DNA from: Microcystis aeruginosa NIES-2549
Lineage (GTDB): Bacteria; Cyanobacteriota; Cyanobacteriia; Cyanobacteriales; Microcystaceae
Reading direction: 5' to 3'
DNA length: 32,000 nucleotides
Assembly: GCF_000981785.2 (NCBI RefSeq)
Contig: NZ_CP011304.1
Location: forward strand, 2,670,001 to 2,702,000
Translations under genes and position numbers: made by a program
Shown: positions 17,864-30,872 of the stretch, one piece after another
Layout of the letters: each line of letters begins with the position of its first letter
Numbering within the stretch: position 1 is the first letter of the stretch
Notes under the pieces: model-generated
What the model was told of the DNA's origin: nothing
The model's input: only the letters and a program-made list of their open reading frames with translations
The model's database searches: none

Positions 17864-19462
17864 ATGCTAAAAATCAAGGAAAAAAAACAAATAATTAGCA
17901 TCAGTTCCATAACTGCGGCGATCTTGCTCAGTTTAACCCTAATTCCTGCCGCTATAGCCAAGGATGTCCTTCTGAGAGTGGGCATTGTCCAACGTTTTGG
18001 CGATGAAGCCAAGGAAAAATTAACCCTGAGCAGTACCAGTGGTGATAATCTCACCCTGCGCGTGGTGGGAGAAGATGGCCAATCCCAAACCCTGCAAACC
18101 AATCGCCTACAATTAGAAGTTATTCCCCGTCCCCTCGCTTCTCCCATCCTCCAAGAAAAAGTCATTTTGAGCGACCACGCCACCTTTGAAACCGCCGAAA
18201 ATAGCGCCAAAAATTGGGCAAAAATGGGCATTAAAGTGGAAATTACCCAACCCGGACGCTGGCAGGTTTGGGCAAAGCGAGAAGTTTATGAAAATCCCCT
18301 AGTGCGGCGTTGGTTGCTGACCAGTTTGCAAACCAAAGGCCACAATCAACCCTATATTAATACTGTTTTACTCAAAGAAAAGCCGCAAGTTTCTTTCCAG
18401 ATCAACGGGGTGCGCTATTTTCCCAAAGAATTAGAAATCGAGAGCCAAAAAAACCTGATTCAAGTTACCCATGGCCCCGATCAGGTACGTTTGTACGGGG
18501 GAACCATGCGCCTACAGCCCAACGCCTACGGCACTTTTACCCTAGTTAATAACGTTCCCCTCGAAACCTACCTGCGCGGGGTTGTACCCCACGAAATCGG
18601 TCATGATGCCCCAGAAAGTGCTACCCGGGCGCAAACTATTATCGCCCGCACCTACGCCCTCCGCAATCTCCGCCGTTTTCAAGCCGATAATTACGAACTC
18701 TGTGCCGATACCCATTGTCAAGTTTATTATGGATTGACGGGAACTAATCCCCGGGCTGATCAAGCGATCGCAGCCACGCGAGGCCTGGTTTTAACCTACC
18801 AAAATGAGTTAGTGGATGCCCTTTATTCCTCCACCACCGGCGGGGTAACTGCCCTCTTTAGTGATGTGTGGGATGGGGAAGAAAGACCTTATCTCCGGGC
18901 AGTGGTGGACTCCCCTAATCGAGTCTGGGATCTGTCGAAACAATCTCTCGCTAATGAGACAACTTTTCGCCAGTTTATTAATCTTAAAGATGGTTTTAAT
19001 GAGACAGGCCGACGGGTCTTTCGCTGGCAAAAACAAGCTTCTTTAGCTGATTTGAGTCAAGACCTAGAAACCTATTTAACACGCAGAAAACATCCCCTTG
19101 CCGACTTCCAGAAAATTCAATGGATGGAAGTGACTAAGCGCTCTCCTTCCGGTCGGATTCTGACTATGACTATTCAAACCGATAAGGGGATTTTGGAACT
19201 GCATAAAAATGAGGTGCGTAGTGCCTTAGGACCACCTCGCAGTACCCTATTCTACATCGATCCTATCTACGATACCAATCGACAGATCCAGGGTTATAAC
19301 TTTATTGGTGGCGGTTTCGGCCACGGGGTAGGATTAAGTCAATTTGGTTCCTATAATTTGGCCCGTTTGGGTTGGTCTCCCGAACAAATTCTCGCTTTCT
19401 ATTATCCCGGCACTATCATCCAACCTCTCAATAATTCGATTGTCTTTTGGCGAGGAAATTAA
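17864..19462 (+). CDS. SpoIID/LytB domain protein (putative peptidoglycan-remodelling lytic transglycosylase family), secreted
   Basis: 532 aa with a signal peptide (SSITAAILLSLTLIPAAIA), then YLRGVVPHEI, RAQTIIARTYAL, YSSTTGGVT and GHGVGLSQFG. Confidence 0.88.
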   Translation: MLKIKEKKQIISISSITAAILLSLTLIPAAIAKDVLLRVGIVQRFGDEAKEKLTLSSTSGDNLTLRVVGEDGQSQTLQTNRLQLEVIPRPLASPILQEKVILSDHATFETAENSAKNWAKMGIKVEITQPGRWQVWAKREVYENPLVRRWLLTSLQTKGHNQPYINTVLLKEKPQVSFQINGVRYFPKELEIESQKNLIQVTHGPDQVRLYGGTMRLQPNAYGTFTLVNNVPLETYLRGVVPHEIGHDAPESATRAQTIIARTYALRNLRRFQADNYELCADTHCQVYYGLTGTNPRADQAIAATRGLVLTYQNELVDALYSSTTGGVTALFSDVWDGEERPYLRAVVDSPNRVWDLSKQSLANETTFRQFINLKDGFNETGRRVFRWQKQASLADLSQDLETYLTRRKHPLADFQKIQWMEVTKRSPSGRILTMTIQTDKGILELHKNEVRSALGPPRSTLFYIDPIYDTNRQIQGYNFIGGGFGHGVGLSQFGSYNLARLGWSPEQILAFYYPGTIIQPLNNSIVFWRGN

Positions 19463-19532
19463 TCAGTTATCAGTTATCAGTTATCAGTTATGAGTTATCA
19501 GTTATCAGTTATCAGTTATCAGTTATCAGTGA
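19463..19532. repeat. 10-unit heptamer array TCAGTTA (one TGAGTTA, last TCAGTGA) starting on the base after the SpoIID stop codon
   Basis: Hand-parsed. TAA is at 19460-19462 and the array starts at 19463. Confidence 0.92.
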
Positions 19533-19610
19533 ACAGGGATATCAGGAGAAAAAAGCTGACGGCTAAAAGGCTAACGGCTAAAAAATCGCCTTCATCTATT
19601 TGACTAAATT

Positions 19611-26278: not shown

Positions 26279-27004
26279 ATGACAACCCTAGATATTGCTA
26301 CTGATATTGTCTGTCCTCCCACCGATTTATGGAGTGATGAACCACCCGTGGAAAGTGATCTGCATTTACAACAAATTATTTTATTATTATCTTGTCTTGA
26401 TTGGCTCTGGCAAGATAGAAACGATTACTATACCTCGGGCAATTTGACTATTTATTATAACGAAAGACAACTGAAACAGCGAGATTTTTGTGGACCAGAT
26501 TTTTTCGTGGTTTTAGATACAGAGAAACGTCCCAGAAAAAGTTGGGTCGTCTGGGGAGAAGGGGGTAAATATCCCAATGTAATCATCGAAATTCTCTCCG
26601 ATTCCACCGCTAATGTGGACAGAAAAGCCAAAAAGGAACTATATCAGCATATTTTCCGGACTCCTGAGTATTTTGGGTTTGATCCCAATACTTTAGAATG
26701 GCAAGGATTCACTTTAATCGAGGGACAATACCAACCGATTACCCCTAATGAAAACGGTTATTTATGGAGTAAGCAACTAGGATTATATTTAGGGATTTTT
26801 GCCAATAAATTGCGCTATTTCACCGAATCGGGTGAATTGGTTCCCACCCCTCAAGAGTCGGCCCAACAGGAAAGATTAGCGAAAGAACGGGAAAGATTAG
26901 CCAAAGAACAGGAAAGATTAGCCAAAGAAAGAGAACAACAACGGGCGGAAAAATTAGCCCAAAAGCTGCGAGAATTGGGCATTAATCCCGATGAAATTGC
27001 TTAA
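26279..27004 (+). CDS. Uma2 family (DUF820) endonuclease-fold protein, paralog 2, with a C-terminal charged-repeat tail
   Basis: 241 aa. SDLHLQQIILL, GNLTIYY, PDFFVV and NVIIEILSDST fit the Uma2 pattern. The tail is ERLAKERERLAKEQERLAKEREQQRAEKLAQKLRELGINPDEI. Confidence 0.85.
   Translation: MTTLDIATDIVCPPTDLWSDEPPVESDLHLQQIILLLSCLDWLWQDRNDYYTSGNLTIYYNERQLKQRDFCGPDFFVVLDTEKRPRKSWVVWGEGGKYPNVIIEILSDSTANVDRKAKKELYQHIFRTPEYFGFDPNTLEWQGFTLIEGQYQPITPNENGYLWSKQLGLYLGIFANKLRYFTESGELVPTPQESAQQERLAKERERLAKEQERLAKEREQQRAEKLAQKLRELGINPDEIA
26870..26932 (+). repeat. 3 x 21-nt in-frame tandem repeat (GAAAGATTAGC[G/C]AAAGAAC[G/A]G) encoding ERLAKE[R/Q]
   Basis: Read directly inside the Uma2 CDS. Confidence 0.85.
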
Positions 27005-27187
27005 ATATCCGATTGGGGGTGTTAGGGTGGAAACTATGGCGCAATTTTTCCTTAATTGCTAGGCATTAACACGAGGAATCCGAAGGTTAGCCCTATTCTT
27101 CCCTAGAAATCATGGCAAAATCTACTTAACCCCCACTGATGTTATAATAATGACCAAGGGCAACAATCTTCAAATATAATTAATGCC

Positions 27188-28255
27188 ATGGTGCAAAAAA
27201 TAGCTTTTTTTAATCATAAAGGTGGAGTCAGCAAAACTACAACCACTTTTAACCTTGGTTGGATGCTTGCTGAGAAGGGCAAAAGAGTAATTATTGTCGA
27301 TACCGATCCCCAATGTAACTTAACTGGTATGGCTTTGGCTAAAGAAAGTGAAGATAGGGAGGAAAGACTACAAGCAATCTACAATACTTACTCTAATATT
27401 AAAACAGCTTTAGCACCTGCTTTTGAGTCTCAACCGAGATTAATTGAAGCTGTGGACTGTATTCCTATTGATGGTCGTGATCGTTTATTTCTATTGCCCG
27501 GTCATGTGGGGTTAGCTGAATATGAAGTTACCCTAGCTATTGCTCAAGAACTTAGTGGGTCAATTCAGGCTTTAAAAAATCTCCCCGGTGCGATTACATA
27601 TTTATTAGACAAAACTGCCGAAAGATTTGAAGCTGACTATATTTTAATCGATATGAGTCCCAGTTTGGGGTCAATAAATCAAAATATACTGATGACCAGT
27701 AACTTTTTTATTGTGCCAACCACGCCGGATTTTTTCTCGGTTATGGCTATCGATTCTTTAGCTAAAATCTTGCCTAAGTGGCACCAATGGGCTAAGGCAG
27801 CTAGTGCTTTACCAATTCTCAAAACAGCCAACTATCCCTTTCCCGAAGTTGACCTACATTTTTTGGGAACTATTGTTCAGAACTATCGAATTATTCGTGG
27901 TAAAGAAACAAAAGCCTTTGAAAACTGGATTAACACAATCGAGGAAAATATCGGCAATAAAATGATTCCAGCCCTAGAAAAAAATGGCATGATGCTACCG
28001 AAATTTATCTACGATCAGAATGGTGTACCAGACTGCTGTACTCTAGTAAAAATTCCTAATTTTAATAGTCTTATTGCCTTATCTCAAGAGCATCAAATGC
28101 CTGTTTTTGCGCTAACTGCTGAACAATTGAAATCAGCTAAGTGGCAGGGTAAAGTGTTAGGTAAAGCCCAAGAAAAACAAGAGGACTTTAAAAGTATTTT
28201 TTCTGACTTAGCAGACAAAGTTATCGGTCTTACCTCCGAAGATTTATGCAGTTAG
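27188..28255 (+). CDS. ParA/MinD-family (SIMIBI) P-loop ATPase, atypically long, with no ParB partner
   Basis: 355 aa with a deviant Walker A NHKGGVSKTT (aa 9-18, including the signature Lys11), A' VIIVDTDPQ and Walker B YILIDMSPS (aa 151-159). About 100 aa lie beyond a typical ParA core. Its stop overlaps the next ORF by 10 nt. Confidence 0.88.
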   Translation: MVQKIAFFNHKGGVSKTTTTFNLGWMLAEKGKRVIIVDTDPQCNLTGMALAKESEDREERLQAIYNTYSNIKTALAPAFESQPRLIEAVDCIPIDGRDRLFLLPGHVGLAEYEVTLAIAQELSGSIQALKNLPGAITYLLDKTAERFEADYILIDMSPSLGSINQNILMTSNFFIVPTTPDFFSVMAIDSLAKILPKWHQWAKAASALPILKTANYPFPEVDLHFLGTIVQNYRIIRGKETKAFENWINTIEENIGNKMIPALEKNGMMLPKFIYDQNGVPDCCTLVKIPNFNSLIALSQEHQMPVFALTAEQLKSAKWQGKVLGKAQEKQEDFKSIFSDLADKVIGLTSEDLCS

Positions 28256-29007
28256 CCATTGAACAATTTCGCCTTAGTATTACCCGCGTTCGTGACTTGA
28301 TCGCTATCCACAATTCCCTCAAATCTCAGACTACTTCCGCCCTAGATGTATCGGATATCCTCAGAGCCGCTTTAGTCCTGACTGTGAGCGCTTTAGATTA
28401 TTATATTCACGAAGTGGTTACTCTAGGAATGCTAGAAATTTATCGAGGCCAACGTTCAGAACCTTCTCCCACTCCTAACAGTTCTCAATCTGCCTTTTCT
28501 CGTTTTCAAGTCTCCTTGAATGGCGCAGGACAAGAACGATTGATAGCTATTAGTATTGGCTCTTGGTTAGAGAACGAAATTCAACAAAACTACGGTTCTT
28601 TTTTTGATCAAGAATCTCGCTCAATTTCCGAGGTACTACCAATGATTGAAAATCTCCTCACCAACAAACTTAATAGTAATTATTGGCTAGAGACTGAAAT
28701 TAGAGAAAACCTCAGATATAAAAGCTTTCAACAACCGGACAAGATAGCGGAGGCCATTAGATTAATTTCAGCCAAGAAATTGTGGGAAGAAGTGGCCAGC
28801 AAACTAAATAAACCAGCCAAAGATATTAAAAGCCAACTTAGCATAATTGTTGATCGAAGGAACAAAATCGCCCACGAAGCTGATATAGACCCGAGTTACG
28901 GCATTGGCAGTCGCTGGAATATCGATGAAAATCTCGTTAATGATGCCGTTACCTTTATAGAACAGCTTGTTGAAAATATCCATCAGGTACTTGAGGACAT
29001 CCACTAG
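28246..29007 (+). CDS. Putative HEPN-domain protein (R-x4-H motif), candidate RNase effector
   Basis: 253 aa with a predicted all-helical composition. VDRRNKIAHE contains R205-N-K-I-A-H210 (nt 28858-28875) near the C-terminus, plus an N-terminal helix pair (LRAALVLTVSALDYYIHEV). The ATG lies inside the last codons of the ATPase gene (ATGCAGTTAG). Confidence 0.6.
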   Translation: MQLAIEQFRLSITRVRDLIAIHNSLKSQTTSALDVSDILRAALVLTVSALDYYIHEVVTLGMLEIYRGQRSEPSPTPNSSQSAFSRFQVSLNGAGQERLIAISIGSWLENEIQQNYGSFFDQESRSISEVLPMIENLLTNKLNSNYWLETEIRENLRYKSFQQPDKIAEAIRLISAKKLWEEVASKLNKPAKDIKSQLSIIVDRRNKIAHEADIDPSYGIGSRWNIDENLVNDAVTFIEQLVENIHQVLEDIH

Positions 29008-29153
29008 CCGAGAATTTCCCCGGCAGTCAAGCCATAAATACTTATGATTTCTCAAGGAATTATAACAATTATTAAATAATGTGTAGTTTTGTATACTGAT
29101 GTCAGGAACTTAGATACAATATCAAGTGGCGTAAGATATATAGAGATTAGCTA

Positions 29154-30872
29154 GTGAGTCGGCATCAAGACAGTCAAACTGACCGGAAACGAGAAGAAAC
29201 ACAGTTCACTCCTTACAGTGCAGCAGCGATCGCTCAACAATACCGTTACAAATCTTGGCAATTGTTCGGCCGCGCTTTCGTGATTATTTGGTCTTTAGGA
29301 TTATTTCTGCTCAGTCTCCTCTGGGACAAATGGACAAAGCAAGAAGAAGCCAATAAATACAGGCGTGCCAGCGAACTTAGGCAAATTCTCACCCGTTTAG
29401 GTCCCACCTTCATCAAAGTCGGTCAAGCTCTCTCTACCCGTCCCGACCTCGTTCGCAAAGACTTTTTAGACGAATTAGTTAAACTGCAAGACCAACTTCC
29501 CCCCTTCGATAACGACATCGCTTTTGCCATTATCGAGACAGAATTGGGGATGCCTGTAGAAAAAGCCTATCGAGAAATATCCCCCACCCCTGTGGCTGCC
29601 GCTAGTTTAGGACAGGTTTACAAAGCGATACTCCCCACCGGTGAAGAAGTAGCCGTTAAAGTGCAACGGCCCGGGCTGCGGCCGCTTTTAAGCCTTGATT
29701 TATACCTAATGCGCTGGGCTGCCCAAAAGTTCGGTCGTTTATTACCCCTCAATCTCGGCCACGACCTCACCCTGATTGTCGATGAATTCGGAACCAAACT
29801 CTTTGAGGAAATCGACTATCAAAACGAAGGTCGCAACGCTGAAAAATTCGCCACCAACTTCCAAAATAACCCCGAAGTTAAAGTTCCCAGTATCTACTGG
29901 CGTTATAGTGGTCGCCGCGTCCTCACCCTAGAATGGATTGATGGCTATAAACTCACCGATACCGAGAACATCAAAGCTTTAGGATTAGACCCCAATAATA
30001 TCGTTAAAATCGGCGTAACCTCTGGATTACAGCAACTCCTTGAACACGGCTTTTTCCACGCTGATCCCCATCCGGGTAATCTTTTCGCCACCTTTGATGG
30101 TCGCATGGCCTATATCGATTTTGGCATGATGGATCAGTTAGAGGAGGAAACTAAAGAAACCCTCGCTAGTTGCGTCGTCGATTTAATTAACAAAGACTAC
30201 GAAAACCTAGCCAGCAACTTTGTCAAACTGGGATTTTTAACCCCAGAAACCGATATAAAACCAATTATTCCGGCTCTAGAACGAGTTTTAGGCAATGCCA
30301 TCGGTCAAAGAGTCGGTGACTTCAATTTCCGCACCATTACCGATGATTTCTCCGAATTGATGTACGAGTATCCCTTCCGGATTCCCGCCAAATTCGCCCT
30401 GATTATTCGTTCCCTCGTCACCCAAGAAGGGGCAGCCCTCACCCTCGATCCTAACTTCAAAATCGTCCAAGTGGCCTATCCCTACGTCGCTAAACGTCTC
30501 CTGACCGGGGAATCGCCCCAACTGCGCCGACGTTTATTGGATGTACTGTTCAAAGACGGTAAATTTCAGTGGCAACGCCTAGAAAACATGATTACAATGG
30601 CTCGATCGGAAAGTAACTTCGATTTACTGCCCACAGCGCAATTAGGCATCACTTTTCTTCTCTCGGAAGAAGGTCGTTATCTGCGTCGTCAATTGCTATT
30701 AGCTTTGACGGAAGATGACCGTCTCCACACGGCCGAAGTGCAACGTCTCTGGGGTTTAATTCAAGGAGAATTGCAACCGCGACGACTCTTGGATGTGGCC
30801 ATGAGCGCTTTTCGGGAATTATCGGCCCAAGGTGTGGCCGCTGTCCTTCCGGGAGAAACCAGTTCGCGTTAA
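29154..30872 (+). CDS. ABC1/UbiB-family atypical kinase (GTG start)
   Basis: 572 aa with LGPTFIKVGQALSTRPD, AAASLGQVYKA, VAVKVQRPG, FHADPHPGN and IDFGMM. Confidence 0.93.
   Translation: MSRHQDSQTDRKREETQFTPYSAAAIAQQYRYKSWQLFGRAFVIIWSLGLFLLSLLWDKWTKQEEANKYRRASELRQILTRLGPTFIKVGQALSTRPDLVRKDFLDELVKLQDQLPPFDNDIAFAIIETELGMPVEKAYREISPTPVAAASLGQVYKAILPTGEEVAVKVQRPGLRPLLSLDLYLMRWAAQKFGRLLPLNLGHDLTLIVDEFGTKLFEEIDYQNEGRNAEKFATNFQNNPEVKVPSIYWRYSGRRVLTLEWIDGYKLTDTENIKALGLDPNNIVKIGVTSGLQQLLEHGFFHADPHPGNLFATFDGRMAYIDFGMMDQLEEETKETLASCVVDLINKDYENLASNFVKLGFLTPETDIKPIIPALERVLGNAIGQRVGDFNFRTITDDFSELMYEYPFRIPAKFALIIRSLVTQEGAALTLDPNFKIVQVAYPYVAKRLLTGESPQLRRRLLDVLFKDGKFQWQRLENMITMARSESNFDLLPTAQLGITFLLSEEGRYLRRQLLLALTEDDRLHTAEVQRLWGLIQGELQPRRLLDVAMSAFRELSAQGVAAVLPGETSSR

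Follow-up and report, generated by a model that had tools for sequence, protein, structure and literature searches.

A ParA/Soj-fold ATPase and a predicted ribonuclease (RNase) of the HEPN superfamily, encoded by two overlapping genes of Microcystis aeruginosa NIES-2549, probably make up a self-contained conflict module of the toxin–antitoxin (TA) or abortive-infection type, in which ParA would restrain or gate the RNase; we hold this reading with moderate confidence. The genes lie in a 32,000-nucleotide (nt) stretch of DNA (NZ_CP011304.1, positions 2,670,001–2,702,000), hereafter the window, whose numbering is used below unless a locus is named. We favor this reading because the putative regulator gene comes first, the coupling of the two genes is conserved, the pair is gained and lost as a cassette, relatives are carried by Pf phages and plasmids, TA genes lie near the pair in other genomes, and decay falls preferentially on the HEPN gene. 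An initial annotation, made from the letters of the window, had proposed a two-gene system of this kind; cassette behavior, HEPN-biased decay, and phage and plasmid carriage agree with it, while the conservation and partial synteny seen across cyanobacteria are atypical for defense genes.

A curated profile places the downstream protein in the HEPN family, and its RNase activity is predicted from sequence. The Pfam model PF18735 (HEPN_RiboL-PSP) matches amino acids (aa) 13–251 with E = 8e-15 and 55.7 bits against a gathering score of 28.4, and phrog_13503, a family of unknown function in PHROGs, matches with E = 2.5e-32. The initial annotation had recognized the protein by an R205-x4-H210 signature and suspected that it might already bear a family label: the motif stands, within DRRNKIAHEAD, and the label is RiboL-PSP-HEPN, from a HEPN survey of 2013. 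The sister model PF18737 (MAE_28990/MAE_18760) stays under its cut-off (17.2 vs. 26.8 bits, E = 0.006), no NCBIfam family matches the protein, and a search of the Protein Data Bank (PDB) with the HEPN profile found no solved homologue (best E = 0.39). Residues R204, R205, N206, H210, E211, and D213 are invariant in 46 sequences and in 13 maximally diverse members, phage and plasmid copies included. The most diverse relatives also keep D37, L39, R40, S48, D51, H55, R70, F161, Q162, and W180, so that D37/R40/D51/H55 and RRNxIxHExD are common to cyanobacterial, acidobacterial, phage, and plasmid copies. The AlphaFold2 (AF2) model is all-helical, with a predicted local distance difference test score of 83.5. 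Cyanobacterial members carry an additional segment, WLENEIQQNYGSFFDQ, which reads as a diverged tandem duplication of the following helix, WLETEIRENLRYKSFQQ: the local alignment scores 49, compared with 20.7 ± 4.0 for shuffled sequences, of which 1 in 2000 reached 49. This insert is present in all 250-aa cyanobacterial orthologues examined and absent from the ~200-aa relatives.

The upstream gene product is a bona fide ParA/Soj fold. It matches PF13614 (AAA_31) with E = 1.6e-31, CbiA matching as well, and its AF2 model has a predicted TM-score of 0.85. The best Foldseek matches are the Soj proteins of Helicobacter pylori and Thermus thermophilus (E~1e-11), with the uncharacterized DIP2308 (PDB 3pg5) also on the list; H. 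pylori Soj aligns with E = 1.8e-11, probability 1.00, and a TM-score of 0.72 on the target. All three ATPase motifs first read in the 355-aa product (FNHKGGVSKTT, VIIVDTDPQ, and ILIDMSP) were confirmed, and K11, K16, D38/D40, and D155 are invariant in 29 cyanobacterial orthologues. The protein is an exact match to AKE65057.1, annotated as ‘regulatory protein CII’ and assigned here to MYAER_2717 by adjacency; the HEPN protein exactly matches AKE65058.1 (MYAER_2718). The ATPase falls under the NCBIfam cut-off of every curated partition-ParA, MinD, and BcsQ model (e.g., 68 vs. 180 bits for NF041546 and 59 vs. 348 for TIGR03453).

The pair is obligate and translationally coupled. A scan of a genome collection yielded 80 loci, drawn with peptide patterns from the query, a sample that gives no measure of cyanobacteria without the pair. 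By tblastn, the window ParA has a counterpart directly upstream of HEPN in all of them except L004, a contig end, and L024 (4795–5809, a Stigonema metagenome-assembled genome, or MAG), where an insertion sequence (IS) transposase stands in place of ParA beside an intact HEPN open reading frame (ORF) whose motif reads AHQAD rather than AHEAD. Counting all related loci, both genes occur together in 93 of 95, with a ParA of ~340–357 aa directly upstream, confirming the expectation that HEPN homologues would consistently have a ParA neighbor. Chance adjacency was rejected on this count, since ParA is upstream in nearly every locus, most often overlapping HEPN by 17 nt. Among the compared loci, no third gene accompanies the pair consistently, and Rfam found no RNA family in or beside the pair (26800–29300), which leaves no evidence for an RNA antitoxin.

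The overlap itself is conserved. It measures 17 nt in 69 of 78 related loci and is kept at that length from Microcystis to Terriglobia. The 10-nt overlap described at first is present in the window, where the HEPN ATG falls 10 nt inside the ParA ORF (ATGCAGTTAG), but is strain-specific; other Microcystis have the family-typical 17 nt. The difference comes from a single extra A (28225–28255, CCGAAGATTT vs. CCGAGATTT in other Microcystis), which shifts the last four ParA codons (SEDLCS* vs. SEIYAVSH*). The extra A is probably real, because two NCBI records hold the same protein.

Within Microcystis, the pair behaves as an accessory cassette. We read ten Microcystis places using the neighboring Glrx-like protein as a handle: seven hold the intact pair, one a frameshifted HEPN gene, and two (L099 and L102) are empty, with Uma2 abutting ABC1. 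When aligned, empty and occupied sites part at the junctions 27028/27029 and 29017/29018, between which the empty sites have 11 nt (TGCCCAACTCA) and the occupied ones a 1,989-bp cassette that holds only the ParA–HEPN pair, so the presence/absence comparison proposed at the outset did reveal variation. At the empty site of L099 (6261–6431, corresponding to window 27005–27028 and 29018–29040), a short palindrome, GGGGTG...CACCCC, spans the cassette position. A consensus promoter scan found no strong -35/-10 pair in the cassette leader (27029–27187), and the promoter and terminator scan was uninformative; the extended -10 listed in Table 1 is a candidate promoter, read from sequence.

Decay of the pair is biased toward HEPN. 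Seven loci (L001, L006, L047, L054, L071, L077, and L105) combine a broken HEPN with an intact ParA, whereas an intact HEPN without an intact ParA was seen in L024, by IS replacement, and possibly in L075, giving seven HEPN losses against at most two ParA losses. In four of nine species-level Microcystis genomes, an intact ParA stands beside a disrupted HEPN (one stop codon, two frameshifts, and one 95-nt insertion). The insertion, in Microcystis sp. M015S2 (L071 6541–6635), resembles a miniature inverted-repeat transposable element, follows HEPN codon 188, and has 8-nt terminal inverted repeats (ATAGCGGT...ACCGCTAT). Stop codons in HEPN also occur in two Nostocales genomes. Within Microcystis, the ratio of nonsynonymous to synonymous substitution rates (dN/dS) is 0.21–0.36 for ParA and 0.25–0.76 for HEPN, compared with 0–0.36, mostly <0.2, for flanking genes.

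Outside cyanobacteria, relatives of the pair are found on mobile elements. The ParA–HEPN family comprises about a thousand clusters at 50% identity in several phyla, patchily distributed. Pairs of a ~350-aa ParA and a ~200-aa HEPN with the 17-nt overlap occur in a Terriglobia MAG, in an uncultured genome, and in Microcoleus; the Microcoleus pair is an additional, paralogous one of acidobacterial type, and its ParA, unlike its HEPN, clusters with the copies of Terriglobia and the uncultured genome. More distant pairs (HEPN 24–43% and ParA 36–53% identical), whose HEPN partners all pass PF18735, are carried by the Pseudomonas filamentous phage WX-TY, the Pf1-like prophage AY324828, conjugative plasmids of Burkholderia glumae, and four IMG/VR contigs. 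In Pf phages, the pair lies within the accessory region, in WX-TY beside the integrase. AY324828 encodes ‘Orf317, similar to Soj’ and an unannotated HEPN ORF (AY324828.1 417–935; L090 4001–4528) of 175 aa compared with ~200, which may be truncated, since it stops few residues past the catalytic motif. Mooij et al. gave PA14_49030, a ‘putative regulatory protein’, as Pf5-specific (PMC3820363); we infer that AY324828 is Pf5 of strain PA14 and that PA14_49030 is its ParA gene, Orf317. In other genomes, TA genes adjoin the pair (MazE/PIN, HicAB, PemK, and PaREP1).

Together with its strain-variable presence, the small bicistronic operon of overlapping genes, regulator first, has the layout of TA loci. 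HEPN RNases are effectors in Cas13, Csm6, RnlA, AbiD/F, and many TA systems, and normally work as dimers whose R-x4-H active site is composite. In our reading, the downstream protein would act as an endoribonuclease, translational coupling would fix the ParA:HEPN proportion, and ParA would bind the RNase and hold it inactive. The nucleotide state of ParA, and possibly its DNA-bound state, would govern when the RNase is set free or built into an active dimer. Carried by a phage or plasmid, such a module may stabilize that element or keep competitors out; the cyanobacterial copy would have turned into a long-resident chromosomal one. A more specific version, which we put forward tentatively, makes the ParA/MinD ATPase a switch of an immune RNase that depends on nucleotide and DNA: each ParA monomer would hold one HEPN protomer, and the ATP level or DNA state during infection would drive or dissolve the ParA sandwich dimer, thereby making or breaking the HEPN active site.

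The sign of the regulation could also be the opposite, with ParA as an activator that senses an infection cue and whose ATP- and DNA-dependent dimerization joins two HEPN protomers into an active site. HEPN RNases are dimeric, and dimerization driven by nucleoside triphosphates controls the HEPN/KEN nucleases RNase L, Ire1, and Csm6; the invariance of the ATPase motifs in the 29 cyanobacterial orthologues and a conserved family loop, LAPAFESQP, not seen in Soj, would suit such a role. However, two lineages have lost the Walker A lysines, namely Prochlorothrix (L079 4947–6026, NHNGGDSTAL) and an uncultured genome (L088 4962–6017, KGGVGNTT), and in both the HEPN partner keeps all of its invariant residues. 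An ATPase-dead ParA beside an intact HEPN is tolerable if ParA inhibits and harder to explain if ParA–ATP is an obligatory activator. The HEPN-biased decay and antitoxin-first order likewise suit an inhibitor better, and we regard activation as doubtful. The ATPase also varies in Crocosphaera (three genomes; loci L007, L023, L025, and L081), where ParA is 52–54% identical to that of the window and HEPN 71–74%, and where dN/dS is 0.42 for ParA compared with 0.16 for the adjacent HEPN; such a contrast suggests that in one lineage the ATPase partner has evolved faster or been replaced.

A role in replicon partition or maintenance appears highly improbable. Here ParA would segregate a replicon, such as the Pf replicative form or a plasmid, and the HEPN-fold protein would be a non-catalytic adaptor replacing ParB, whose position its gene occupies in a translationally coupled arrangement. 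The PHROGs class of the ATPase is indeed ‘ParA-like partition protein’, and some pairs reside on plasmids and episomal filamentous phages. However, most copies are chromosomal, the window holds no replicon, and the ATPase passes none of the curated partition ParA models. The initial annotation had seen no ParB-like gene or repeat array, and none was found among the profiled neighbors (17.9–31.3 kb) or in a search for centromere-like repeats (26900–29300). Three points make a partition role unlikely: the whole family keeps its catalytic HEPN residues unchanged, a centromere is lacking, and decay runs in the wrong direction, HEPN being lost and ParA kept, the reverse of what a motor dependent on its adaptor predicts.

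Several observations weigh against a TA-like or abortive-infection module. Both proteins are 62–75% identical between Microcystis and Nostocales, Oscillatoriales, Crocosphaera, Trichodesmium, Arthrospira, and Leptolyngbya; dN/dS of 0.10–0.23 in five cyanobacterial clades indicates purifying selection; sequences in simple distance (neighbor-joining) trees group largely by taxon; and 21 loci of several orders have a fused ATP-binding cassette (ABC) permease/ATPase gene upstream. Moreover, a plasmid scan found no cyanobacterial plasmid with the pair. Conservation, selection, taxon-wise trees, the shared ABC neighbor, the absence from plasmids, and the common HEPN insert together indicate that the pair has long resided on the chromosome under constraint, as TA or defense genes seldom do; the cyanobacterial pattern is more like that of a domesticated cellular gene than of a fast-evolving defense gene. 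In Microcystis, the pair is flanked by housekeeping genes (SpoU methylase, beta-lactamase-like, Glrx-like, Uma2, ABC1 kinase, and TrkAH) and does not lie in a defense island. PADLOC-DB 2.0 has no system for both proteins, as the proposal of an uncharacterized module had foreseen; the only hits were a 38-residue P-loop match to PDC-M28B, and Csx1 and PD-T4-2_B at E>0.01. The HEPN model had no significant Foldseek match in PDB or BFVD, HepT/HEPN chains appearing only weakly (E~1–5, probability <=0.16). A 355-aa ATPase is atypical as an antitoxin, several of the pseudogenes were read in MAGs, where they may reflect misassembly, and the Stigonema locus holds an intact HEPN without ParA. Finally, a literature search returned no experimental study of any ParA–HEPN pair or of the Pf5 genes.

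The principal competing explanation is a domesticated cyanobacterial housekeeping system, in which HEPN would be a nuclease of RNA processing or turnover whose location or activity is organized by a ParA positioning ATPase, for instance by tethering to the nucleoid. ParA/MinD ATPases that position non-DNA cargo offer an analogue. The identity of both proteins across orders, the purifying selection, the taxonomically coherent trees, the recurrent ABC neighbor, and the lack of cyanobacterial plasmid copies all fit such a system, as do the clade-specific insertion fixed in all 250-aa orthologues and the Crocosphaera neighbors, which include the housekeeping genes mutS and enolase. On the other hand, empty sites and repeated HEPN pseudogenes make the pair dispensable in Microcystis; Pf phages, conjugative plasmids, and viral contigs carry it; the additional 200-aa-type pair of Microcoleus has a ParA that groups with Terriglobia copies; and the distribution across phyla is patchy. 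We consider domestication a rather unlikely account of the pair; both it and a conflict function may hold, each at its own stage of evolution.

Pairs of this composition had been predicted before. Anantharaman, Makarova, Burroughs, Koonin, and Aravind described dyads of a ParA/Soj-like ATPase and a MAE_18760-family HEPN in 2013, predicted them to be TA systems, and proposed the ATPase as the antitoxin; in their table, Ribo L-PSP-HEPN is given as an ‘operon with ParB’, not ParA (PMC3710099). The likeness lies in a SIMIBI ATPase beside a catalytically intact HEPN of a family named after a Microcystis locus; unlike those dyads, the window HEPN belongs to the sister family PF18735. The composition is thus not conceptually new, contrary to the initial annotation, and the window pair is a variant with a sister HEPN family, of moderate novelty.

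Other known systems share parts of this design. In HepT–MntA (type VII TA), an R-x4-H HEPN gene just follows the gene of an enzyme antitoxin in a small overlapping operon, and HepT structures are among the weak Foldseek matches of the HEPN model; however, MntA is a nucleotidyltransferase that AMPylates the toxin, whereas the window partner is a ParA-type ATPase three times larger, the partners have no sequence relationship, and the HEPN families differ. Control of a HEPN-type RNase by a P-loop nucleoside triphosphatase (NTPase) in defense is established for the anticodon nucleases PrrC and RloC and for other NTPase–HEPN fusions. In these, an ABC-type ATPase is fused to the RNase and restrained by a restriction–modification partner, unlike the separate ParA/MinD-type ATPase of the window; such NTPase–HEPN regulation is discussed in the 2013 survey (PMC3710099). 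Soj/ParA–Spo0J and McdA–McdB share the ATPase fold and motifs and a partner gene directly downstream, but the window lacks ParB, a centromere, and a McdB-like partner, and its ATPase has ~100 extra residues and a family-specific insert. An McdA/McdB identity was rejected, since the partner does not resemble McdB and McdA is only a distant fold match (E of 1e-8 for Cyanothece McdA, compared with 1e-11 for Soj). By sequence profile, the closest solved protein is the uncharacterized DIP2308 of Corynebacterium diphtheriae (PDB 3pg5, 361 aa; E = 1.1e-22), which shares the extended ~360-aa architecture but only 22–25% identity with the window ATPase. To our knowledge, the established role of ParA/MinD ATPases is that of positioning motors rather than toxin regulators.

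The surroundings of the pair provided further observations. A Uma2-family (PF05685) gene on the same strand (26279–27004) lies directly upstream of ParA in all Microcystis, and a Uma2 gene holds that position in ~14 Nostoc loci (e.g., L050 4183–4839), the two Uma2 proteins being only distantly related. Given how common Uma2 genes are in cyanobacteria, the adjacency could be due to chance, or else mark a loose functional association; as empty-site strains retain Uma2, we rejected it as a third component of the cassette. Its C-terminus (26850–27004) is a repetitive, coiled-coil-like ERLAKE(Q/R)ERLAKE tract, and the protein has 227, 234, or 241 aa depending on the strain. Farther away, an IS605 OrfB/TnpB (Cas12f-like) gene sits between trkA and spoIID in six of the ten Microcystis places (L096, L098, L099, L101, L103, and L105) and is absent from the window, where the corresponding site is ~19460–19610.

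Table 1. Features of the ParA–HEPN cassette in the window.
Feature	Position	Strand	Evidence
Accessory cassette with only the ParA–HEPN pair, 1,989 bp	27029–29017		Alignment of empty and occupied sites
Cassette leader with candidate promoter, extended -10 TGTTATAAT at 27140–27148	27029–27187	+	Sequence, inside the indel
ParA/Soj-fold deviant Walker A ATPase, 355 aa (MYAER_2717)	27188–28255	+	Pfam PF13614, AF2, Foldseek
Deviant Walker A NHKGGVSKTT (signature K11, P-loop K16)	27212–27241	+	ORF motif; 29 cyanobacterial orthologues
Walker A'/switch region VIIVDTDPQ (D38, D40)	27287–27313	+	ORF motif; orthologue alignment
Walker B ILIDMSP (D155)	27641–27661	+	ORF motif; D155 invariant family-wide
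ParA stop/HEPN start overlap, 10 nt, ATGCAGTTAG	28246–28255	+	Read from sequence
RiboL-PSP-type HEPN protein, 253 aa (MYAER_2718)	28246–29007	+	PF18735, phrog_13503, AF2
Cyanobacteria-specific insert (HEPN aa ~95–143)	28528–28674	+	Duplicates the next WLExEIR...SFQQ helix
HEPN catalytic motif RRNKIAHEAD (R204 R205 N206, H210 E211, D213)	28855–28884	+	Alignments

How each HEPN RNase is restrained is the central mechanistic question for systems with HEPN effectors, and ParA–HEPN is a large predicted family, spread over several phyla and including Pf prophages of Pseudomonas aeruginosa. What is new here are the natural knock-outs and empty sites of Microcystis, the natural ATPase-dead variants, and a homologue amenable to experiment in a Pf1-like prophage of P. 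aeruginosa, which make the prediction of 2013 directly testable. If the ATPase proves to be a switch that depends on nucleotide and DNA, a ParA-family protein would serve for the first time as a defense sensor, retained vertically in cyanobacteria with a clade-specific helix duplication while its relatives are mobile on filamentous phages and plasmids. If the cyanobacterial copies are domesticated, they would be an example of a mobile toxin module turning into a cellular gene.

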